Source of the DNA: a virus
Taxonomy: Duplodnaviria; Heunggongvirae; Uroviricota; Caudoviricetes
IMG/VR virus record: IMGVR_UViG_2721755658_000002
DNA: 34,014 bases
Direction: 5' to 3' (one strand)
Both the position numbers and the translations under genes were made by a program. Under the pieces are notes generated by a model, which saw only the letters and a list, made by a program, of their open reading frames with translations, was not told where the DNA came from and searched no databases. Below are positions 14,178 through 32,777 of this stretch, piece after piece; position 1 is the first letter of the stretch, and each line of letters begins with the position of its first letter.

Positions 14178-14776
14178 TACGCAAACTCCAGTAGTTGTGC
14201 GGCCACATTTTCAACTTCCTCCTGAGAGGAGAATTTACGGAACAGAATCCAGTTCCACAGCACATTCAGTACAGATTTATAAACCTGCTGAAACTCGACT
14301 TCGTCCATATTCGCAAAAGCGATGGATTTTGCCCGACGCCCACGGCTACCGTCCGGATAAATATGCTCGGTGTAAAATCCGGCCTGAATGGTTACCCACT
14401 CGCGGAAAGCCTCAAACGACTTTAGCAACGCCGTATCCCGGGTTCTACGAGTCGCAACGGTGTTAAGGTATTGCTCTGCGGCATCACTCAGGGCTGGCGT
14501 GTGTTCCCGACCAACTGATTCGCACAGGTAATCAACGAAACCAGACAGCAGTTCTCGTTCGCGAGGCGTGATCGCCCCACCGACCGGAGTCCAGTAATCG
14601 AATCCCAGTTGCAGGAGTTTGAAAAAACGCTTGTGGAATGCGTAGTTACGCACACGCTTAAAGTCTGCGTGTATCCACTCACCTATTTTGATTTGATGCA
14701 GAAAATCGCAACTCTCCGGCGTCGCCGGGAGAAGTAAACCAGAAGAAGTTTGTTTGACCAGTTGTATATGCGCCAT
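14177..14776 (-). CDS. nin-region hypothetical protein (DUF1367-like)
   Basis: 199-aa ORF ending one nt into the ybcO-like start; family from weak recollection and position. Confidence 0.4.
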   Translation of the reverse strand: MAHIQLVKQTSSGLLLPATPESCDFLHQIKIGEWIHADFKRVRNYAFHKRFFKLLQLGFDYWTPVGGAITPRERELLSGFVDYLCESVGREHTPALSDAAEQYLNTVATRRTRDTALLKSFEAFREWVTIQAGFYTEHIYPDGSRGRRAKSIAFANMDEVEFQQVYKSVLNVLWNWILFRKFSSQEEVENVAAQLLEFA

Positions 14777-15244
14777 TTCTCAATCTCTCGATGGCGCAGT
14801 GCAGCAGATGCCAGTTGTTCAGGCTGACGTATAAAGTATAAATAAACTGGTTCCAGTGTAAAGCCCCCACCTTAATGGAATAAAAACCAAACAACAGATT
14901 GCTGGGATACAAACAACGCTTATTATTAAAAGCGGTTAAACAAATTAAATTTTAATGTTATGCAAATTTGTCAGATCACCATAATATCTCATTTGAAAAC
15001 CGCTGAAATAACAATCCTATCAGGATTAATCATATTAAGGTGAGTAAATATGGAAAACAACAAATCTGCACATTACGCTCCTTTTTTATCTGTAATACTT
15101 TTTGTTTTTTGCTGTGTATGGGCATTATTTTTATAAAAATATTCACAGATAAAATAAACTCGCCGAATCAGGTTAAGTGTGGGTGCGTTGAGGATGCCTG
15201 ACACATCAGAGGCGGCGAGGGATTTCTCCCTCGCCTAGTCACTC

Positions 15245-15400
15245 TTACTCCTCAGGTTCGTAAGCTGTGAAGACAGCGACCTCCGTCTGACCGGTTCGGA
15301 TTCGCACCTCGCAGAGGTCTTTCCTCGTTACCAGTGCCGTCACTATGACGGTTAAACAGATGACAATCAGTGCGACTAACATCGCCTTTTGCTGCTTCAT
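15245..15400 (-). CDS. hok: Hok/Gef family type I toxin (HokD/RelF-like)
   Basis: 51 aa MKQQKAMLVALIVICLTVIVTALVTRKDLCEVRIRTGQTEVAVFTAYEPEE; in-frame upstream extension to 15457 could be mok-like. Confidence 0.85.
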   Translation of the reverse strand: MKQQKAMLVALIVICLTVIVTALVTRKDLCEVRIRTGQTEVAVFTAYEPEE

Positions 15401-15880
15401 AGCCTGCTTCTCCTTGCCTTCCGGCGCGTAAGAGGCTAACCTACATGTGCAAAGCATGAAATTGGCCTCAGATTAATGTTAAGCGTCTTGCCGGACGCGT
15501 AATGTTATCTGGGGCTTTTCTCTATCTGCCTTTGGTGTTCATGCCTGAGGCAGATAGCCTCAAGCACCCGCAGCAATTCTACTTAACTCCCGTCACCTCG
15601 CCAATATAAAATCAATCAGAAAGGCGATCCATAAGAACAACAGCAAGACAATAAATTGCCATTACAGCCGCAATAGCTAGCGCACATTTGAGAACCAGCA
15701 CGACAACCTCCTGTATTGGACGTACACCAGTTCTGATAAATATGAGGCTGTCTCATCATTGATTCAATATAACTATTGGGTATAGTTTCTGTGATTTTGT
15801 TCTGTAGAAATGGAACACAACAACCAGTCACCACCAGCACTTCTTTAAATACGCCAAGTCCGACGCAAGCTAACCTTCTA

Positions 15881-15904
15881 GTCCGCTTTGAGCGAGGAGC
15901 GGAC
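15881..15904. repeat. 24-bp palindrome GTCCGCT-N10-AGCGGAC (copy 1 of 3)
   Basis: Perfect 7-bp inverted arms; same arm family and spacing as copies at 18947 and 22620. Confidence 0.6.
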
Positions 15905-16120
15905 CAAACCCGGCCAACTGACTCTTAAAGGGGCCGCAGGAATTTTTCGTCTGAACTTTCGAAGCTCCTCTCCCTGAAGACAGAAAACTTCTGTGTGCTG
16001 TGGGAATATTGAATCTTTGCCTTAGATATAAATAATTTTATCCCGCCTGAAGTTTACATTATTTTATTTATCTGTTTTTCTAAATCAGACTGCACTCCTT
16101 ACTTAAATCAGGAGCCAGTC

Positions 16121-17320
16121 ATGCCATTTGTTATTTATGTGTTTACTATCAGTGCCTTTGCGCTCGGACTCGCGGAATTTGTCCCCATTGGGCTGACAGA
16201 CGTTATGGCTCAGGGGTTGTGTGTGGGTGTGGAGCAGACCGGGGCAGCGGTTACAACCTATGCACTGGGGGCAACGTTCGCGGCACCCGTACTGTCTGCG
16301 CTGACAGCAAGCTGGAGCCGGAAAAATGTAATGCTTACAACTGCCGTTGTGTTTACTGCCGGTAGTCTGGCGGCCGCGTTTGCAGCCACATTACCTCAGC
16401 TCCTGTTAGCGCGGTTCATTGCTGGTCTGGGACACGGCCTGTTTCTGGCTGCGGCATCCAGTACCGCAGCTCGTCTTGCTGGACCGGGTAAAGCAGGCAG
16501 AGCGGTGGCTGTGGTATTTGGTGGCTTTACTCTGGCGATGGCAATCGGCGTACCGCTGAGTACATGGTTGGGGGGGGTGGTCTCATGGCGTCCAGTTCTC
16601 GGCGCTATTGCCGCTTTTGGCGCGTTCGGATTCCTTGGACTGTTGTTCGGTATGAAAGATCCCGTACGCAGCGTGCCCGGTGAACATAGTGACTCAGCAA
16701 TGCAGAATATCGGCATGCTGTTTAACCGTAAGTTGCTGGCCGGCGCGCTGGTTACGGTGCTGGCGTATGCAGGCTCGTTTACGGATTACACCTTTATCGC
16801 ACCTATTCTGACGCAGGTGACAGGGGTTACCGGAGCAACGGTGAGTCTGTTTATGCTGGTTTACGGTATTACAGCTGCGGTAGGTAATATTCTTGGTGGG
16901 AAACTTACCGACAGCATGGGGGTTAATCGTGCCAATATACTCATCATTAGCGGCATTGTTGTTGTCGTGCTTGGTATGTGGCTGCTGTCATCCTCACCGG
17001 TGAGCATGGGCATTCTGGTTGCGCTGCTGGGTATGGTGACATTTGCCGCAGTGCCGGCACTGCAGGCCCGTCTGATTGGTGTCGCTGAGCAACATGCTCC
17101 TCATGCGCATGGTGTTGCTGCCGGCCTGAATATTGCGGGCTTCAACTCAGGTATAGCGCTGGGATCAGTACTGGGCAGCATTACTATAAGCCACGCCGGT
17201 ATCGTGTATACCGGTATCAGCGGTGCGATTGTTTCTCTGCTCGGCCTGCTGTTGCTGCTTGCACAAATCCGTCGCAGCCACAGTCGTAAATTTCAACAGG
17301 TTAAAATCGTAGGCCAGTAA
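16121..17320 (+). CDS. MFS family transporter
   Basis: 399 aa, about 12 predicted hydrophobic helices, Gly/Ala-rich MFS-like composition; SD AGGAG. Confidence 0.75.
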   Translation: MPFVIYVFTISAFALGLAEFVPIGLTDVMAQGLCVGVEQTGAAVTTYALGATFAAPVLSALTASWSRKNVMLTTAVVFTAGSLAAAFAATLPQLLLARFIAGLGHGLFLAAASSTAARLAGPGKAGRAVAVVFGGFTLAMAIGVPLSTWLGGVVSWRPVLGAIAAFGAFGFLGLLFGMKDPVRSVPGEHSDSAMQNIGMLFNRKLLAGALVTVLAYAGSFTDYTFIAPILTQVTGVTGATVSLFMLVYGITAAVGNILGGKLTDSMGVNRANILIISGIVVVVLGMWLLSSSPVSMGILVALLGMVTFAAVPALQARLIGVAEQHAPHAHGVAAGLNIAGFNSGIALGSVLGSITISHAGIVYTGISGAIVSLLGLLLLLAQIRRSHSRKFQQVKIVGQ

Positions 17321-17331
17321 AGGGAGGTTAT

Positions 17332-18024
17332 ATGCTTACCCGTGAAAATATGCTTAATGGCACATTTGTCAGGGTGCATGAAGCGCTGCTCCCGGCGAAT
17401 ATGCTCTGGGACGCTGAAAAAATACGCGCATCAATGAACTCTACTCTGGAGGAGCGCCCGACGGGTGCTCCTGTCTGGATATTTGCCTACGGGTCATTGA
17501 TGTGGAATCCCGTGCTGGCGATTGAAGAAATGCAACGGGCCCGTCTGAAAGGATGGCAGCGCAGTTTCTGCATTCGTTTGATATCCGGACGAGCGACTCC
17601 TGATGTCCCCGGCAGGATGTTATCGCTCGACGAAGGTGGAATTACCGAAGGTATTGCGTTCAGACTGCCGGAATCGACTCTTATTAATGAGCTGGAAATT
17701 GTCTGGACGCGCGAGATGATAACCGGTCTTTACCGTCCGGTCTGGGCAGACGTTTCGCTAGGAAACGGTGAGGAAATTCAGGCGCTGGCTTTCGTATCAG
17801 ACAGACTGCATCCGCATTATGAACAGGACAATCTTACAGCGACCGTAGCGTTGAGCATCGCATCTGCCCGTGGAGACATTGGCACGAATGCAGATTATGT
17901 ATGGAAACTGCAGGCCACTCTGGGTGCGTTGGGAATACGGGATGATTACGTGAGTGAACTGGCCCTTGCTCTGCATGAGGCTCCCTGTAACGATAAACTT
18001 CATCAGCGAGGCGCTTCACTATGA
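17332..18024 (+). CDS. ChaC-like gamma-glutamylcyclotransferase family protein
   Basis: 230 aa with VWIFAYGSLMWNP motif and overall similarity to recalled E. coli ChaC; SD GGGAGG. Confidence 0.75.
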   Translation: MLTRENMLNGTFVRVHEALLPANMLWDAEKIRASMNSTLEERPTGAPVWIFAYGSLMWNPVLAIEEMQRARLKGWQRSFCIRLISGRATPDVPGRMLSLDEGGITEGIAFRLPESTLINELEIVWTREMITGLYRPVWADVSLGNGEEIQALAFVSDRLHPHYEQDNLTATVALSIASARGDIGTNADYVWKLQATLGALGIRDDYVSELALALHEAPCNDKLHQRGASL

Positions 18025-18902
18025 GCCATCTGAGCCATCTGCGAACGTTTCTTGAGGCCTATCGCTCTGGCTCCTTTTCAAAGGCGGCAGAACTACTGGG
18101 CATCACTCAGCCCGCGGCGTCACAGCATATCCAGTCTCTTGAGACTCTGGTTGGTAAGCGTCTGTTTATCAGGCAGGCCAGAGGCGTGACGGCAACCGAA
18201 GCTGCGGATGAGCTTGCCCGCTCAGTTTCACCCTTCATTGATGGTCTGGAAGAAAAGCTGTCCTCTTTCCGGTCAGGCTCTGTACGCGGGGGAACAATTA
18301 ATCTGGCAGGACCGCCAGATTTTATTCATTCCCGGCTTGGGACAGTAATGGCTCCACTAATGAAGGAGGGTTATCGCCTACGCTTTCATACCGGCAATAA
18401 GCAACGTATTTATTCCCTTTTGCATGACGGGAGCGCCGATCTCGCTGTTACCGCATCTATGCCTGATGACCGTCTGTACGGCTATGCACATCTACTGACT
18501 GAACGCATGCTCCTTGTTCATGCTCCCGCCATGTCAGAGATCATCGGATCAGAACCTGGTGCTGAAACGCTTGCCTCATTACCGCTGATTGCTTATGACG
18601 AAGAGTTGCCACTGATTAGAGCGCTCTGGGCCTCCATGTTTCAGAGAGCCCCTGAGATGCAGGCTACATTCACCATTCCGGATTTACGTATTATCCGCGA
18701 CTTGGTCTGTGACGGCCACGGGTGGACAGTGCTGCCGGATTATCACTGTGACAATGACCTGAAAAGTGGTCGCCTGATTTCAGTGACACCTGCAGACCTC
18801 GCTCCGACTAATCATCTTTATCTGGTCTGGAACAAAAGGACGGCTAATAACAGCCGAACCGCCTATGTTCGGGATTACATTCTTAAAACGTTTCCGCGTT
18901 GA
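18021..18902 (+). CDS. LysR-family transcriptional regulator
   Basis: N-terminal HTH LRTFLEAYRSGSFSKAAELLGITQPAASQHIQSLE typical of LysR regulators; ATGA overlap with upstream gene. Confidence 0.8.
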   Translation: MSHLSHLRTFLEAYRSGSFSKAAELLGITQPAASQHIQSLETLVGKRLFIRQARGVTATEAADELARSVSPFIDGLEEKLSSFRSGSVRGGTINLAGPPDFIHSRLGTVMAPLMKEGYRLRFHTGNKQRIYSLLHDGSADLAVTASMPDDRLYGYAHLLTERMLLVHAPAMSEIIGSEPGAETLASLPLIAYDEELPLIRALWASMFQRAPEMQATFTIPDLRIIRDLVCDGHGWTVLPDYHCDNDLKSGRLISVTPADLAPTNHLYLVWNKRTANNSRTAYVRDYILKTFPR

Positions 18903-18946
18903 TGTTTGAAACGGATGATTGGCGATGCGTATCATAAGTTACGTAT

Positions 18947-18970
18947 GTCCGCTTCTGGCACAAAGCAGAC
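18947..18970. repeat. 24-bp palindrome GTCCGCTTCTGGCACAAAGCAGAC (copy 2 of 3)
   Basis: 20/24 identical to copy 3; lies between the convergent LysR and DUF2254 genes. Confidence 0.6.
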
Positions 18971-19032
18971 GCCCACTCTCACGCGAATGCTTTGCCCTTG
19001 ACTTGCCAACAACCGTATCGCTTGCTCCGCAA

Positions 19033-20310
19033 CTATGGTTTTTTATTAGAATCTTCGCCACTAAATAAATTATAATAAATTGATTTTATTAGATATCTGT
19101 CAGAATCTATATGGTCAGCACGAGTAGCATGCTCTAATGTTTCAAATGCTAGGGTTTGTGCGGCTTCAGCAAAAATTCCAGGCCAACCCTTACTCAGCAT
19201 CGACAGTCCTTTAAGTACCCTTATCTGAATTTCCCTCATACTGGCACCATCGCGCGCAACAGGTGAGAAAAAGTCTTCAAGTAGATCGTTATTCTGAAGT
19301 GGTGCAACATGTACAGAAGGATATTTCACTTCTATTTCATCAGATTTATTCTGCGCGTAAGCGGAAAGTATACGTACACCTCTGCCAATGACATCAATGG
19401 CGGTTCCAGGATCGTTCACTGCGGGGGAAAGGGCTCGGCAGGCTATTTCGGCCATGACGCTAAGACAAAATCGGGGGTCCTGAGCAAATGAACGTACATC
19501 CGAGACAATAATCGTCTCAAGTAAATCGGTGCTGATTGATGACTCCTGGCCCTGACTCAGGTACAAAACTGGCGTGGACGGATGTATGAAACTGCCCGGC
19601 TGCGCCACGAGGTATACATGACGGGGATCATTGGTCAGCAGCTTGCTGAGTTTCACCATATCAACATATTCAACATAGCCAATCTTTTTCGGATAAACTG
19701 CAACCGTTCCTTTCGGCTGTTCATTGTTCTCAAGCCATGGATATCCGCCGAGACAGGGATTTCTTGCTCTCGCAATAAATGTTTCGATGGCCGCCTGTTC
19801 TACTTTTGCCGTTGTCTCACCAACCCTCCCCAGAGAGGTCAAATGCTGTATCCAGCGAAGCAATGTGATGAGGATTAAGGCAATGACAACCAGTGTTACA
19901 ATGAATAAAATGACTCTCCCCCTTTCTCCATAAGCTCCCATATTGAGGGCAATAATCCCTACCAGACTGAAGAGAAAAGAACCGATGAAGGTGGCCAGTA
20001 CATTTTGTGTGGTGACGTCTTCAACAACTAAACGAGTAGCTCTGGGAGTCACATTAGTAGTGGCTGAACCGTAGGCTGTGACCATGATGCTCAGCGAAAA
20101 TGTGGTCACTGCCAGCATACTCGATGCCAGTATGTTCAGAATGTTATCGACTGCTTCCGCACCAACCTTCACGGAAACCGACTCAGGTATCATTGATTTA
20201 AAAAGAATTGATAAAAGGGCCGTTATTATTGCGACAATTGCGAATAACGTTGCCCTGAACCATAGTTTTTTAAATGTCTGCTTCAGCATCCATTTCCAGC
20301 GTGAAATCAT
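19033..20310 (-). CDS. DUF2254-like predicted membrane protein
   Basis: ORF with N-terminal TM helices; start set to ATG 20308-20310 (GAGGGAA upstream); alternative ATG at 20325. Confidence 0.5.
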   Translation of the reverse strand: MISRWKWMLKQTFKKLWFRATLFAIVAIITALLSILFKSMIPESVSVKVGAEAVDNILNILASSMLAVTTFSLSIMVTAYGSATTNVTPRATRLVVEDVTTQNVLATFIGSFLFSLVGIIALNMGAYGERGRVILFIVTLVVIALILITLLRWIQHLTSLGRVGETTAKVEQAAIETFIARARNPCLGGYPWLENNEQPKGTVAVYPKKIGYVEYVDMVKLSKLLTNDPRHVYLVAQPGSFIHPSTPVLYLSQGQESSISTDLLETIIVSDVRSFAQDPRFCLSVMAEIACRALSPAVNDPGTAIDVIGRGVRILSAYAQNKSDEIEVKYPSVHVAPLQNNDLLEDFFSPVARDGASMREIQIRVLKGLSMLSKGWPGIFAEAAQTLAFETLEHATRADHIDSDRYLIKSIYYNLFSGEDSNKKP

Positions 20311-20373
20311 TCTGCATTCCCTCATATTGCAGCCGGGATAAATAAATGCCGCCTCTGTGGCGGCATGTTGCTG

Positions 20374-22377
20374 TTAACGAACCAGATGCAGGAAGTGCAG
20401 GTGTTTTTCGTACTGGTCCAGTATGTCATTAATCAGCTGTTCCTGATTCCAGCCCATTACATCATAATTTTGGCCGCCCTCTTTGAGATAGACTTCAGCG
20501 CGATAATATCGATGTTGTTCACTCTGCTGCTCATCATTATCCAGCGCAGCGAGCGCGAAGGTCGGTGAGTTATACCCGCGAAGCCTCACTTCATATATAT
20601 AATTCAGCTCGTTGCCCAAATCGACTTCAAGGCGAATACGATCCTCGGCGGCGTCACTGATGTGGCTTATCGTTCCCTGCTTGTTAAGTTCCTCCTGAAC
20701 CAGCGTCATGGCGGGTTGGATAATGTCGTCCATAAAACGTTTCACAAGAGAGCGCTTCGGCAAATACGCGATATTGCGTAACCTTCTCTGCCAGGGAATT
20801 GGGTTACGTGCAGCCGTAGGAGCAATAGTCGCCATGCTAAGGCTTTCACGCTTGGTCAAATCCCGACGCAGGGCTTTTAACAGTCCGTATATGGATATTA
20901 ATAAGATAACTGAGAAGGGCAATGCACTCGCTATCGTTACGGTTTGCAACGCACTCAGCCCCCCTGCGATCAGCAGGGCAATAGCAACAACGCCCATGAG
21001 CGATGCCCAGAAAATTCGCTGCCAGACGGGCGTGTTTGCCACCCCACCTGATGCCAGAGTATCCACAACCATTGCCCCCGAATCAGCAGACGTTACAAAG
21101 AAGACGATGACCATCGCCATTGCAATGAATGACAGCACGGAAGAGAACGGGAAATGCTCCAGGAAATTAAACAGGGCAAGCGCAACATCCTGCTGAACGG
21201 TATTGGCGAGGTCAGTGGCGCCCTGGTTCATGATGAGATAGATGGCGCTGTTTCCAAACACCGTCATCCACATGAGCGTAAAGCCGGCGGGAACAAACAA
21301 CACGCCAGTCACGAACTCACGAATTGTCCTGCCGCGGGAAACGCGTGCAATGAACATACCTACAAACGGCGACCATGAAAGCCACCATCCCCAGTATAAT
21401 AATGTCCAGCCCCCCAGCCAGTTGCTCGACTTGGGTTCATACGCGTAAAGGTTGAACGTTTTACTCACCAGTTCCGACAGATAACCACCCGTATTTTCCA
21501 CAAATGACTTCAGCAGAAGCACAGTGGGACCCAGGCACAAGACCAGCGCCAGGAGCAACACCGCCAGGCCCAGATTAAGCTCAGACAGGATGCGTATTCC
21601 CTTGTCCAGGCCGGACACCACCGAAATCGTCGCTAACCCCGTGATGACCACGATCAAAATGACCTGTACCGTTTCATTGATGGGCACGCCGAAAAGATGG
21701 TTCAAACCGGCATTCACCTGCAATACACCGTAACCCAGCGATGTTGCAACGCCAAAGACAGTGCCTATCACGGCGAAGATATCAACCGCGTGGCCTATAG
21801 GCCCGTAAATGCGATCGCCGATAATGGGATAGAGCGCAGAACGCAGCGTTAAAGGCAGACCGTGACGGTAACTGAAAAAGGCCAGAATCAGCGCCACGAT
21901 GGCATAAATTGCCCATGCGTGCAGACCCCAGTGGAAGAACGTCAGGCGCATGGCTTCCTTCGCTGCCGCAACGGTCTCTGGAGTGCCGACAGGTGGCGAA
22001 AGATAATGCATCACAGGTTCGGCAACGCCAAAGAACATCAGGCCGATCCCCATCCCTGCCGAAAAAAGCATCGCGAACCAGGAGTGGTAGCTGAAATCAG
22101 GCTGCGCATGGTCTGGGCCCAGCTTTATATCACCGTAACGTGAGAGTCCAAGGAACGTGACGCTCAGTAAAATCAGGGCCACAGCAAGTATGTAGAACCA
22201 GCTGGCATTCGTGAAGATTTGTTGCTGAAGTAGTTTAAAATTTTTGTCGGCGACATCCGGGAATACGGCGGCAAAGGCGACAAGAAGGAAAATTAGCAAA
22301 GCAGATGTAAAGAATACCGCTTTGTTAATCTGGCTTGTAGACTTCTTTGGGGTTGTATCATTTTCACTCATAATCAT
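20374..22377 (-). CDS. BCCT-family transporter (BetT-like choline/betaine transporter)
   Basis: 667 aa multi-TM; C-terminal ...QEQLINDILDQYEKHLHFLHL... resembles BetT C-terminal extension as recalled; start may be the ATG at 22371. Confidence 0.8.
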   Translation of the reverse strand: MIMSENDTTPKKSTSQINKAVFFTSALLIFLLVAFAAVFPDVADKNFKLLQQQIFTNASWFYILAVALILLSVTFLGLSRYGDIKLGPDHAQPDFSYHSWFAMLFSAGMGIGLMFFGVAEPVMHYLSPPVGTPETVAAAKEAMRLTFFHWGLHAWAIYAIVALILAFFSYRHGLPLTLRSALYPIIGDRIYGPIGHAVDIFAVIGTVFGVATSLGYGVLQVNAGLNHLFGVPINETVQVILIVVITGLATISVVSGLDKGIRILSELNLGLAVLLLALVLCLGPTVLLLKSFVENTGGYLSELVSKTFNLYAYEPKSSNWLGGWTLLYWGWWLSWSPFVGMFIARVSRGRTIREFVTGVLFVPAGFTLMWMTVFGNSAIYLIMNQGATDLANTVQQDVALALFNFLEHFPFSSVLSFIAMAMVIVFFVTSADSGAMVVDTLASGGVANTPVWQRIFWASLMGVVAIALLIAGGLSALQTVTIASALPFSVILLISIYGLLKALRRDLTKRESLSMATIAPTAARNPIPWQRRLRNIAYLPKRSLVKRFMDDIIQPAMTLVQEELNKQGTISHISDAAEDRIRLEVDLGNELNYIYEVRLRGYNSPTFALAALDNDEQQSEQHRYYRAEVYLKEGGQNYDVMGWNQEQLINDILDQYEKHLHFLHLVR

Positions 22378-22619
22378 TTATTCCATTAATTAAATCCGCA
22401 CTGGATAGAAGGTACTACCTCTCACAGAGTAGCAAAGTTCAACTGGCTATGCGGGGTTAATCGGAATGCATGGTGGAATGAGTGCCGATACAAATCATCC
22501 TATATTCTAAGGAGTTTTAAGTTACTCAGCCTGCCAATTACTGGGGCATTTAATTTGTATGATCTGTATCAAAGCTGGGATATAAGTTAAGTGAAGTATA
22601 TTAGGCACGAATTACCAGC

Positions 22620-22643
22620 GTCTGCTCTTGGCACAAAGCGGAC
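22620..22643. repeat. 24-bp palindrome GTCTGCTCTTGGCACAAAGCGGAC (copy 3 of 3)
   Basis: Direct repeat of copy 2; lies between the BCCT gene start and the replication module. Confidence 0.6.
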
Positions 22644-22711
22644 AACCACGCTAGCTCTACCCTGTGCCACAAAATGTCAATTTGCATCTGAACTAATGCA
22701 CTTTAATCTCG

Positions 22712-23134
22712 TCACTTCAATAAATACCGAACATCCCCCTGATAAAACGACAATATGCGCTGCATAACTTCGCTCTTCCGGCACTCGCGACAGATTATGT
22801 TTAGGCGACTGTCGTAGCGACGTATTTCTCCGTCAGGTAATGACCAGATAAGGTCCGGATCAACCACAACCGGTTTCTTCAGCTTTGCCCTCGATAATTT
22901 TTTGCGGGCATTTTGCCAGTCTTTACGAGCCTGTTCAGACGGGAATAACCCGTAGCCAGAATTGTATACATCGCCACTGGCAACCAGCTCTCTGGCCAGA
23001 ACGCTCATCAGATATCTTGTTGCCCCAGTTTTAGCTTCCAGTTGTCGTAACGTCTCGCGCCCACTCTGGCGTACGAGTTCAAGAACCTGCCCTTTAATTT
23101 TTTCCCGCTCTTCTTGTGTAAAAACTTTTGCCAC
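22712..23134 (-). CDS. hypothetical protein of the replication module
   Basis: 140-aa ORF with GTG start preceded by AGGAGG; follows the replication initiator-like gene. Confidence 0.35.
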   Translation of the reverse strand: MAKVFTQEEREKIKGQVLELVRQSGRETLRQLEAKTGATRYLMSVLARELVASGDVYNSGYGLFPSEQARKDWQNARKKLSRAKLKKPVVVDPDLIWSLPDGEIRRYDSRLNIICRECRKSEVMQRILSFYQGDVRYLLK

Positions 23135-23174
23135 AAGCCCTCCTGAAAATTACCTCATGACCAGAAATTAACAC

Positions 23175-24245
23175 TTACCCCCTGAAGCCCGGCGGAATTT
23201 CGTTATCCGGTTCAGAAATATGATTCACACAACGCTGGTTGTTCGTGCCGCTTACCGGGAGCAACCAGGGGTTCTCAAAATTCCGGTCCGGTCCAAAAAA
23301 CGTCGTCGCTCGCTGAACAAATTCCGTTCCCGTTTTCCCGGTAGCCGCCAAGTATCTTGCGTAACGCCTCACGCCATCCAGCATGGCCTCTGGTGACACC
23401 CCCTCGCGTAATCTGGCCTTCCAGGCACTGAAAGCGGATTTCTTCGGGTTTGCCCCAGCACGCAACGGGTACTCCCGCCAGACCTGTTCGAACACATCCG
23501 GATAATCCACTCGTCCCACAGACTGCCCGGTGTTTTCCGGGACTACCCGATCGGCTTCCCGCTGAATGGCGGAATCGGCTTCAGGCTGCTGCAGTTGGTG
23601 TGATTGCTCCGCCCTTGCGGTCATCACCTGCTGCACAGCGCCCGAATCGGCTTTCAGCGCATACGCTGAATCGGCTTCCGGTGTCGTGCCTGCTGGCTGA
23701 CCAAGATTGACGGTCTGAACATCCCCTGCCTGGTTCGTGGCGTTTTTTACGCCATGGACCATAGTGTTTTGATCTTCTTGATCTGTATCTTTATCTGTAT
23801 CTTTATCTGTCGTGACTCGTCGTGACATGTGCGTGACATTTCGTGACGCGCCGTGACAATCGCCATTTTGTTCCCGCTTTCTTTCCCTCTCTCGCTGCGC
23901 CCTCTTGCGCTCTGCAGGAGATTTTGCGGTTTGCGAAATATTGCCGTTGTCCTCTTTAAGCACCTGGCGTTTTTCCCATCCAGTGATTAAATCACCATCA
24001 AGTACCCGCCCCTGCATCGTCTGCAAAATTGAATCAATTACCTCTTCTGTCACGTCGAGCGCACTTGCCAAATCTTCTGTCGTGACATCAATGTGACCTC
24101 GCGTGACATTTCGTGACGCGCTCACCAGGAGGTGGATATACACTGCCATCACTGTTGCAATTGGCTGTCCTGACACCCTGGCAATTGTTCGCCACTTAGG
24201 GTCATTTGGCATGTCATGCCATAATCTGAGCCAGGCGTTAGCCAT
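23175..24245 (-). CDS. putative replication initiation protein (YdaU/O-like) containing internal iteron arrays
   Basis: Start ATG 24243-24245 preceded by AGAGGTGAG; position after ydaS/ydaT; two clusters of CGTGAC direct repeats inside the ORF, as for lambda ori inside O. Confidence 0.5.
   Translation of the reverse strand: MANAWLRLWHDMPNDPKWRTIARVSGQPIATVMAVYIHLLVSASRNVTRGHIDVTTEDLASALDVTEEVIDSILQTMQGRVLDGDLITGWEKRQVLKEDNGNISQTAKSPAERKRAQRERERKREQNGDCHGASRNVTHMSRRVTTDKDTDKDTDQEDQNTMVHGVKNATNQAGDVQTVNLGQPAGTTPEADSAYALKADSGAVQQVMTARAEQSHQLQQPEADSAIQREADRVVPENTGQSVGRVDYPDVFEQVWREYPLRAGANPKKSAFSAWKARLREGVSPEAMLDGVRRYARYLAATGKTGTEFVQRATTFFGPDRNFENPWLLPVSGTNNQRCVNHISEPDNEIPPGFRG
23811..23857. repeat. 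iteron array 1: five CGTGAC repeats at 10-11 bp spacing
   Basis: CGTGAC at 23811, 23821, 23832, 23842, 23852. Confidence 0.6.
24081..24117. repeat. iteron array 2: CGTGAC / TGTGAC repeats at 10-11 bp spacing, plus an inverted GTCACG at 24050
   Basis: CGTGAC at 24081, 24102, 24112 and TGTGAC at 24092. Confidence 0.6.
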
Positions 24246-32561: not shown

Positions 32562-32777
32562 ATGGCACAAGTAATCTTTAATGAAGAGTGGATGGTTGAA
32601 TACGGCCTGATGCTTCGCACTGGTCTGGGGGCCAGACAAATTGAAGCATACCGCCAGAACTGTTGGGTGGAGGGCTTCCACTTCAAACGAGTATCTCCTT
32701 TAGGTAAGCCAGACAGCAAACGAGGGATTATCTGGTACAACTATCCAAAGATAAATCAGTTTATCAAAGACTCATGA
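32562..32777 (+). CDS. xisR: excisionase XisR (YdaQ)
   Basis: 71 aa from ATG 32562 ([44 protein letters not shown]...), SD GAGGTG; stop one nt before the integrase start. Confidence 0.7.

Follow-up and report, generated by a model that had tools for sequence, protein, structure and literature searches.

A stretch of 34,014 nt (IMG/VR record IMGVR_UViG_2721755658_000002; the whole stretch is referred to as the window) is a Rac-like Escherichia coli prophage integrated beside ttcA, and its + strand carries three open reading frames (ORFs) head to tail in the ORF listing, encoding a major facilitator superfamily (MFS) transporter, a ChaC-like gamma-glutamylcyclotransferase and a LysR-type transcriptional regulator (LTTR), here called MFS, ChaC and LysR. 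The genes are packed closely into a single unit with a common orientation (Table 1), and LysR very probably controls the promoter of MFS and ChaC. The explanation that we favor, with some reservation, is that of a self-contained cassette made up of operator/promoter, MFS, ChaC and, as the last cistron, LysR, which would control both the MFS promoter and its own gene.

The LysR start codon ATG (18021-18023) and the ChaC stop codon TGA (18022-18024) share the four bases ATGA (junction sequence ...cttcactATGAgcc...). An earlier reading of this DNA, made from the sequence alone (the sequence-only reading), had placed such an overlap at the 3' end of the MFS-ChaC pair, and the ORFs and the sequence at 18021-18024 confirmed it. 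The gap between MFS and ChaC is 11 nt long, with AGGGAGG inside it. The LysR start is secure because its ATG is the first start codon past the preceding in-frame stop, because Met1 was invariant and Ser2 nearly invariant among 18 aligned homologues (divergent loci included), and because the helix-turn-helix (HTH) domain starts at residue 4. An ATGA junction with (G/A)AGG upstream was kept in Enterobacter (L004), Pantoea (L005) and a Klebsiella plasmid (L082), and the ChaC/LysR junction was also kept in a cassette remnant (L003). Compared with the window, the L004, L005 and L082 copies demonstrated synonymous divergence (dS) of 0.2-0.9, and MFS, ChaC and LysR demonstrated ratios of nonsynonymous to synonymous divergence (dN/dS) of 0.03-0.17, indicating purifying selection; the ratio was 0.07-0.08 for LysR and 0.09-0.17 for the 3' end of ChaC. 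Between ChaC and LysR, the ATGA overlap allows no space for a terminator. A consensus scan of the + strand from 16037 to 18905, MFS and ChaC included, yielded no sigma-70-like promoter at its threshold, and no convincing intrinsic terminator was found 3' of LysR, where the hairpin at 18947-18970 lacks a T-run. The three genes of the window are likely co-transcribed.

Table 1. Coordinates of the cassette, its predicted control elements and the neighboring features in the window (SD, Shine-Dalgarno sequence)
Feature	Position	Strand	Remarks
MFS transporter gene	16121-17320	+	399 aa; ORF listing and Pfam; SD AGGAG at 16110-16114
ChaC-like gamma-glutamylcyclotransferase gene	17332-18024	+	230 aa; SD AGGGAGG at 17321-17327
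LysR-type transcriptional regulator gene	18021-18902	+	293 aa; last cistron of the cassette
ChaC/LysR junction	18008-18024	+	SD GAGG at 18008-18011, 9-nt spacer, ATGA stop/start overlap at 18021-18024
Conserved operator-MFS-ChaC-LysR cassette	16008-18905	+	blastn against Enterobacter (16008-18905) and Pantoea (16028-18902)
Predicted LysR recognition site	16028-16041	+	perfect dyad ATAAATAATTTTAT (ATAAA-N4-TTTAT, T-N10-A); conserved position
Second conserved A/T-rich block	16054-16072	+	TTACATTATTTTATTTATC; two overlapping 2-mismatch dyad copies (16054, 16058)
Inferred -10 element	16086-16091	+	CAGACT; aligns with the TAGACT / TACGAT / TAGCCT block of orthologous promoters
Left hairpin	15881-15904		GTCCGCTTTGAGCGAGGAGCGGAC; border of the cargo slot and of the segment common with the Klebsiella plasmid
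Middle hairpin	18947-18970		opposite in orientation to the left copy; 45 nt past the LysR stop; parts the cassette from the DUF2254-BetT module
DUF2254 gene	19033-20325	minus	separate cargo module, convergent to the cassette
BetT gene	20374-22377	minus	separate cargo module with DUF2254
hokD toxin gene and full-length sok antisense RNA	15245-15569	minus	Rfam RF01794, 116 bits; directly left of the slot

Eighty loci were fetched, one genome per species, and MFS, ChaC and LysR were placed in them by tblastn and ORF tracing; the 36 loci with a LysR at least 51% identical (L002-L037) made up the close orthologous set, to which the following counts refer. An orthologous MFS (58-100% identical) stood directly beside LysR in 34 loci. 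The co-oriented layout, with MFS or MFS-ChaC followed by LysR, was found in 22 loci and the divergent layout in 12, one of them with a truncated MFS; among the remaining loci, LysR preceded MFS in one and MFS was missing from one. By this comparison, LysR and MFS have stayed paired in gamma-, beta- and alphaproteobacteria and through both layouts. The sequence-only reading had described LTTR genes as usually divergent from their targets and the co-oriented arrangement as atypical. Divergent transcription does occur in a third of these loci (12/36), and the window departs from it with a co-oriented, overlapping gene; the word atypical is overstated, as the co-oriented layout is that of the majority of sampled species (22/36) and has a well-studied precedent in nhaAR (PMC6307784).

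ChaC is an optional passenger that invariably lies 3' of MFS in both layouts. LysR was divergent from MFS-ChaC in Paraburkholderia, Comamonas and a metagenome-assembled genome (MAG), and the order MFS-ChaC-LysR was found in the window, Shigella, Enterobacter, Pantoea, Citrobacter and the Klebsiella IncF plasmid. In Klebsiella sp. R390 (L003), ChaC was lost by a clean deletion of what corresponds to 17310-17924 of the window, leaving 100 nt of the ChaC 3' end before LysR. The deep branches of a neighbor-joining tree of LysR were those of the divergent layout, and the tree grouped most co-oriented loci (Enterobacterales, one Pseudomonas group and an Aeromonadaceae MAG), with Acinetobacter and Pasteurellaceae branching apart. 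The co-oriented layout therefore looks derived, having arisen once or a few times and remained stable since. The 4-base overlap was limited to the ChaC-containing enterobacterial cassette; other co-oriented loci had gaps of 28-170 nt, the shortest of which between MFS and LysR (28-49 nt in Klebsiella, Raoultella and some Pseudomonas) leave little room for signals. More distant LysR orthologues (40-51% identity; L038-L081) were present in alphaproteobacteria, cyanobacteria and Pseudoalteromonas with a divergent DJ-1/PfpI partner (for example, L038 5192-5950, minus strand), and in many alphaproteobacteria the DJ-1/PfpI gene was followed by MFS. From these loci, the accessory enzyme is lineage-dependent, ChaC in beta- and gammaproteobacteria versus DJ-1/PfpI in alphaproteobacteria and cyanobacteria.

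Upstream of MFS, the predicted recognition dyad of LysR is centered 86 nt before the MFS ATG, at about -63 from the inferred transcription start. The dyad lay 85-98 nt 5' of MFS in the co-oriented loci and 108-113 nt in most divergent loci (86 nt in L034). When 406 kb were searched with at most one mismatch, 30 of the 48 matches fell within -60 to -125 of the MFS start, a band of 66 nt per locus that amounts to 0.5% of the DNA searched, and 28 of the 33 loci were covered. Exact matches in the 34-kb window were two only, 16028-16041 and 32751-32764; the latter, at the 3' end of xis upstream of int, was judged to be due to chance (four matches with at most one mismatch versus 1.9 expected). A related dyad, ATA(G/A)A-N4-T(C/T)TAT, was found about 19 nt 5' of LysR in distant relatives. 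In the protein, residues T29, Q30, P31, A33, S34, H36, I37 and Q38 of the HTH recognition helix were invariant or nearly so across divergent and co-oriented layouts.

As the dyad keeps its place in both layouts, the best reading is that LysR controls the MFS promoter and hence its own gene, and it is highly likely that LysR targets this promoter. The sequence-only reading had raised control of the transporter and the cyclotransferase as something LysR may exert; with LysR paired to MFS in 34/36 loci and the dyad conserved 5' of MFS in both layouts, such control is very probable. That reading had further suggested a search for T-N11-A boxes upstream of MFS and near the promoter of the BCCT (BetT) operon. 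Upstream of MFS, the conserved dyad at 16028-16041 is a candidate box, with the pattern T-N10-A rather than T-N11-A; a link to the BCCT operon was not supported, as the family operator was absent at up to two mismatches from 22378-22711 (upstream of BetT) and DUF2254-BetT is a separate module. At the same tolerance, the operator was also absent from the DUF2254-BetT spacer, the LysR-DUF2254 spacer and ChaC.

The second A/T-rich block lay 12-30 nt 3' of the dyad in a box-anchored stack of 32 distinct promoters, with the consensus tAAAtaaTAATTt in divergent loci and AtTTTatTTat in co-oriented loci. With the -10 element placed at CAGACT, the dyad center would fall at about -63 and the second block over the -35 region. 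The CAGACT element was missed by the consensus promoter scan, as expected of an activator-dependent promoter. In LTTRs, the regulatory site lies at -80 to -50 and the activation site overlaps -35 (PMC11495319), and by inferred position the dyad and the A/T-rich block would fit this geometry.

The cassette was also found as a mobile unit. In blastn comparisons, homology to the chromosomes of Enterobacter sp. BIGb0383 and Pantoea rwandensis spanned the operator to the LysR stop, beginning in Pantoea exactly at the dyad (16028), which indicates that the cassette travels as a self-contained regulated unit. In the window, it occupies part of the interval from hokD/sok to the DUF977 gene, in antisense orientation to every flanking phage gene, and the DUF2254-BetT pair, convergent to it, comes 3' of LysR; the prophage genes include recET, kilR, sieB, hokD/sok, DUF977, DUF1367, lysis genes and P22-type head genes. 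Carriers of the cassette amounted to 310 of 5,426 complete E. coli genomes (about 6%). Identity to it was at least 99% in 309 of the 311 matching E. coli records, and 298 of the 310 carrier genomes retained at least 80% of it at an identity of at least 99%. Shigella (L002) and 11 IMG/VR viral contigs carried it as well; a megablast search of the deposited phage genomes in INPHARED yielded no match, so among phage-type sources it is known only from prophages of bacterial genomes and from IMG/VR contigs. Literature searches with the protein accessions, ChaC+LysR+MFS and Rac+BetT found no published work on the cassette.

Decayed copies were observed in E. coli and Shigella, including a frameshifted MFS in Shigella (L002) and in one viral contig (L086), disruption by IS1 and IS3 insertions (H1, H59), and a deletion variant (L095) in which only ChaC residues 193-230 and an intact LysR are left. 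A MFS-LysR fusion protein (P0101) exists, and a cluster of HTH-less LysR proteins of 245 aa, with 331 member sequences, stands among these entries (L002, L086, L095, H1, H59, P0101, P0007).

In the favored explanation, LysR would bind the dyad together with the A/T-rich site over the -35 region of the MFS promoter and, on sensing an effector, would activate transcription from it; activation appears somewhat more plausible than repression. In the ancestral divergent layout, the same site would repress the promoter of the regulator itself. In the lineage of the window, the LysR gene would have been relocated downstream in the orientation of MFS, and one LysR-controlled promoter would read MFS, ChaC and LysR in turn. 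As the distal cistron of a LysR-controlled transcript, LysR would rise and fall with its targets; induction would raise LysR along with them, an inducible positive autoregulation as in nhaAR, with leaky or internal transcription as the source of basal LysR. Several LTTRs are known to be autoregulated positively (PMC11495319). Ribosomes finishing ChaC may restart on LysR at ATGA, and LysR also has a GAGG Shine-Dalgarno sequence of its own.

The closest functional analogue of the cassette, by gene order and regulation, is the nhaAR operon of E. coli, in which a transporter gene is followed by the gene of a LysR-type activator and an NhaR-dependent promoter, P1, lies upstream of nhaA (PMC6307784). 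Two upstream promoters and an internal nhaR promoter within nhaA have been described (PMC4222967). Both systems have a transporter gene followed by a co-oriented LTTR gene, an order found in the window as well as in 22 of the 36 orthologous loci, and in nhaAR the regulator activates the promoter 5' of the transporter and so belongs to its own regulon; in the cassette, co-transcription and activation are predictions from sequence. The two differ in that nhaAR has no enzyme gene between transporter and regulator, and the protein families are unrelated except for the LTTR fold. The nhaA and nhaR genes are not known to overlap. Since operon-embedded LTTRs such as NhaR are already known, the understanding of LTTRs is unchanged; the arrangement in the window is a known kind of exception and no surprise, and the regulatory interpretation is plausible and comparatively backed.

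Several observations weigh against a self-activating, co-transcribed cassette or against parts of it. No stabilized RNA structure was found at the ChaC/LysR junction (minimum free energy of -26 kcal/mol, z = +0.92 versus shuffles), so that nothing in the fold points to obligatory translational coupling; strict coupling or a fixed ratio is doubtful. The sequence-only reading had proposed expression of LysR in fixed ratio with the transporter and the cyclotransferase; this fold gives it no support, LysR has a Shine-Dalgarno sequence of its own, and an internal promoter like that of nhaR (PMC4222967) is plausible. The T-N10-A dyad is one base shorter than the canonical T-N11-A site of LTTRs. The sole promoter-like scan match 5' of MFS, TTGAAT (16009) / AATAAT (16036), has its -10 inside the dyad and would imply repression; its TTGAAT -35 was not conserved in the Pantoea or the Klebsiella sp. 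copy. In several co-oriented relatives, gaps of 88-170 nt contain strong hairpins, and in Acinetobacter guillouiae (L031, 5903-6000) a terminator-like hairpin with a T-run lies between co-oriented MFS and LysR, which suggests separate or attenuated expression of that LysR. Co-orientation in the LysR family is therefore not always co-transcription: at one end of the range co-transcription is probable, at the other separate or attenuated expression. These relatives would agree with a LysR expressed mainly from its own constitutive promoter inside ChaC or MFS, with the overlap reflecting genome compaction and the LysR level being largely independent of the operon. The internal nhaR promoter makes one in ChaC plausible (PMC4222967), relatives with terminator-like hairpins between MFS and LysR (L031, L032, L016) must use a separate promoter or read-through, in variants minus MFS and most of ChaC (L003, L095) the LysR ORF is still intact and some 100 nt from the 3' end of ChaC are retained with it, and the classical model holds LTTR levels to be low and constant. 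However, at its threshold the scan detected nothing sigma-70-like on the + strand of either MFS or ChaC, the 3' end of ChaC evolves as coding sequence by the dN/dS given above, and the intact LysR of the deletion variants may reflect recency only (at least 99% identity). Such an independent supply of LysR seems rather unlikely for the window.

The adjacency would be incidental if LysR regulated other genes, such as DUF2254-BetT or host genes, and merely hitchhiked behind MFS-ChaC. Many LTTRs act in trans or globally (PMC11495319), and BetT/DUF2254 adjoin the cassette in the prophage; however, the pairing of LysR with MFS persists over gamma-, beta- and alphaproteobacteria in two layouts, and the family operator lies upstream of MFS and is absent, at up to two mismatches, from the BetT upstream region and the spacers on either side of DUF2254. 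Moreover, the cassette copies of Enterobacter and Pantoea lack DUF2254-BetT, and none was annotated near the Klebsiella plasmid copy, in which the shared DNA ends at the hairpins (15880-18971). We regard incidental adjacency as very improbable. Nor is it probable, to nearly the same degree, that the cassette in E. coli is silent or decaying prophage cargo of no current regulatory consequence: against the frameshifted (L002, L086), insertion-disrupted (H1, H59), deleted (L095) and fused (P0101) copies, and an orientation antisense to all flanking phage genes, stand the 298 of 310 carriers with a largely intact and nearly identical cassette and the strong purifying selection on the orthologues in other genera.

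Divergent pairs of an LTTR and a transporter (LysG-LysE, ArgP-ArgO, SxtR-SxtP) resemble the cassette in that a LysR-type activator serves a single efflux transporter encoded next to it, and the operator lies in the upstream region that they share. The divergent members of the LysR family (Paraburkholderia L006, Comamonas L030) look exactly like pairs of the LysG-LysE type, whereas the LysR gene of the window is downstream and co-oriented. In SxtPR of Acinetobacter and Klebsiella, a LysR-activated MFS pump has a box verified by electrophoretic mobility shift assay, with divergent genes and a 130-bp spacer (PMC13436341). By this published description, SxtPR is set apart by its box (TTAGGGTATGAAA versus ATAAA-N4-TTTAT) and by its divergent genes versus the co-oriented genes with 28-29 nt gaps in the Klebsiella loci. 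The ChaC-like protein shares with human ChaC2 (PDB 6K95) and Francisella ChaC the Pfam ChaC domain, the YGSL motif and a conserved Glu, and its similarity to human ChaC2 is limited to a weak local alignment (E = 5e-08); it differs from the family in that its gene is embedded in a MFS-LysR cassette. In Francisella, glutathione is imported by NgtA, an MFS protein of the Pht family, and ChaC resides in the periplasm (bioRxiv 10.1101/2023.02.02.526638). This NgtA/ChaC pathway is only a loose analogy to the cassette. Like the moron or cargo modules of lambdoid (Rac-like) prophages, the cassette is an independently regulated non-phage unit between phage modules and antisense to the phage genes, and it differs from them in having a dedicated regulator of its own and 24-nt hairpin borders that also flank other cargos.

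A more speculative possibility, to which we give limited weight, is that the move of LysR from the divergent to the downstream position yielded a self-activating cassette of about 2.9 kb, with one promoter and one operator, that functions at any site of insertion. If so, portability would account for the presence of the co-oriented rather than the divergent version on an IncF plasmid and in a slot of Rac-like prophages bounded by hairpins, and the LysR family would be a natural experiment in which gene order rewired LTTR autoregulation from negative to positive and thereby promoted horizontal spread. For an uncharacterized accessory cassette that about 6% of complete E. coli genomes carry, with relatives in many proteobacteria, the analysis offers a testable model of operator, promoter position and autoregulatory loop. 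One orthologous LTTR family with both layouts and the same operator would also be convenient for comparing the dynamics of negative versus positive LTTR autoregulation.

The family assignments of the three proteins were as follows. The transporter matched MFS_1 of Pfam (E 2.8e-42, 145 bits versus a cut-off of 33.4) and is DHA1-like; its nearest NCBIfam models were Cmx/CmrA, AraJ and sugar efflux, and it scored below every equivalog cut-off. Assignment as a Cmx/CmrA chloramphenicol-efflux equivalog was rejected at 207 bits versus the NF033135 cut-off of 400 bits. The ChaC-like protein matched PF04752 (E 3e-35, 122 bits versus a cut-off of 21), with no match to an NCBIfam model and no signal peptide seen; among 22 homologues, the YGSL residues (Y53, G54, S55, L56) and R127-E128-M129 were invariant. 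From the motif, we take E128 to be the catalytic Glu of ChaC1/2, with the HMMER alignment uncertain at this residue. LysR is an LTTR by its domains and length: HTH_1, the LTTR N-terminal domain, covers residues 4-62 (E 4.4e-21, 75 bits, cut-off 26.6) and LysR_substrate covers residues 89-290 (E 3.6e-26, 92 bits, cut-off 28). ArgP/LysG was its best-scoring named model, though below cut-off, and membership of that subfamily was rejected (NCBIfam NF002964, 88.5 bits versus 197; TIGR03298, 84.9 versus 273.6). A thiol-, gamma-glutamyl- or electrophile-related efflux or salvage role for the cassette is only a guess, made because the MFS is similar to DHA1 exporters and because glutathione or gamma-glutamyl compounds are what ChaC enzymes cleave; the electrophile-related variant also draws on the YGSL motif and conserved Glu of ChaC and on DJ-1/PfpI as the alternative partner.

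Three copies of a 24-nt hairpin element (7-bp stem, 10-nt loop; GTCYGCTTTGNGCNANNAGCRGAC; GTCCGCTTTG..AGCGGAC) were found in the window, at 15881-15904, 18947-18970 and 22620-22643, exactly at the borders of both cargo modules. The Klebsiella IncF plasmid shares 15880-18971 of the window, that is, from hairpin to hairpin, with the middle copy as the right border of the shared segment, and the E. coli M1 prophage carries other cargo between the same outer hairpins. The element occurred in more than 120 IMG/VR stretches, where pairs of copies bracket at least five cargos (1.0, 1.5, 2.5, 3.7 and 5.3 kb), and it was also seen in L082, L083, L096 and L097-L176. It lacks a T-run and hence is no canonical terminator, and it has no Rfam family; in an Rfam scan of 14500-23500, sok was the only match. 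The element may be a site of module exchange.

The variable cargo slot of Rac-like prophages, at about 15635-22620 between hokD/sok and the DUF977 gene, is here filled with MFS-ChaC-LysR and DUF2254-BetT. Alternative cargo in the same slot included QueH (strain 582), a NUDIX+HAD pair and single proteins of 269, 484 and 447 aa; the last three received no Pfam or PADLOC assignment, and neither PADLOC nor Pfam assigned any alternative cargo protein of the slot to a defense system. The last 156 nt or so of the query, at the 3' end of DUF2254, had matches of 90-99% identity in over 1,300 plasmid records, most of them from Klebsiella, indicating that DUF2254, possibly together with BetT, is widespread on plasmids independently of the LysR cassette.

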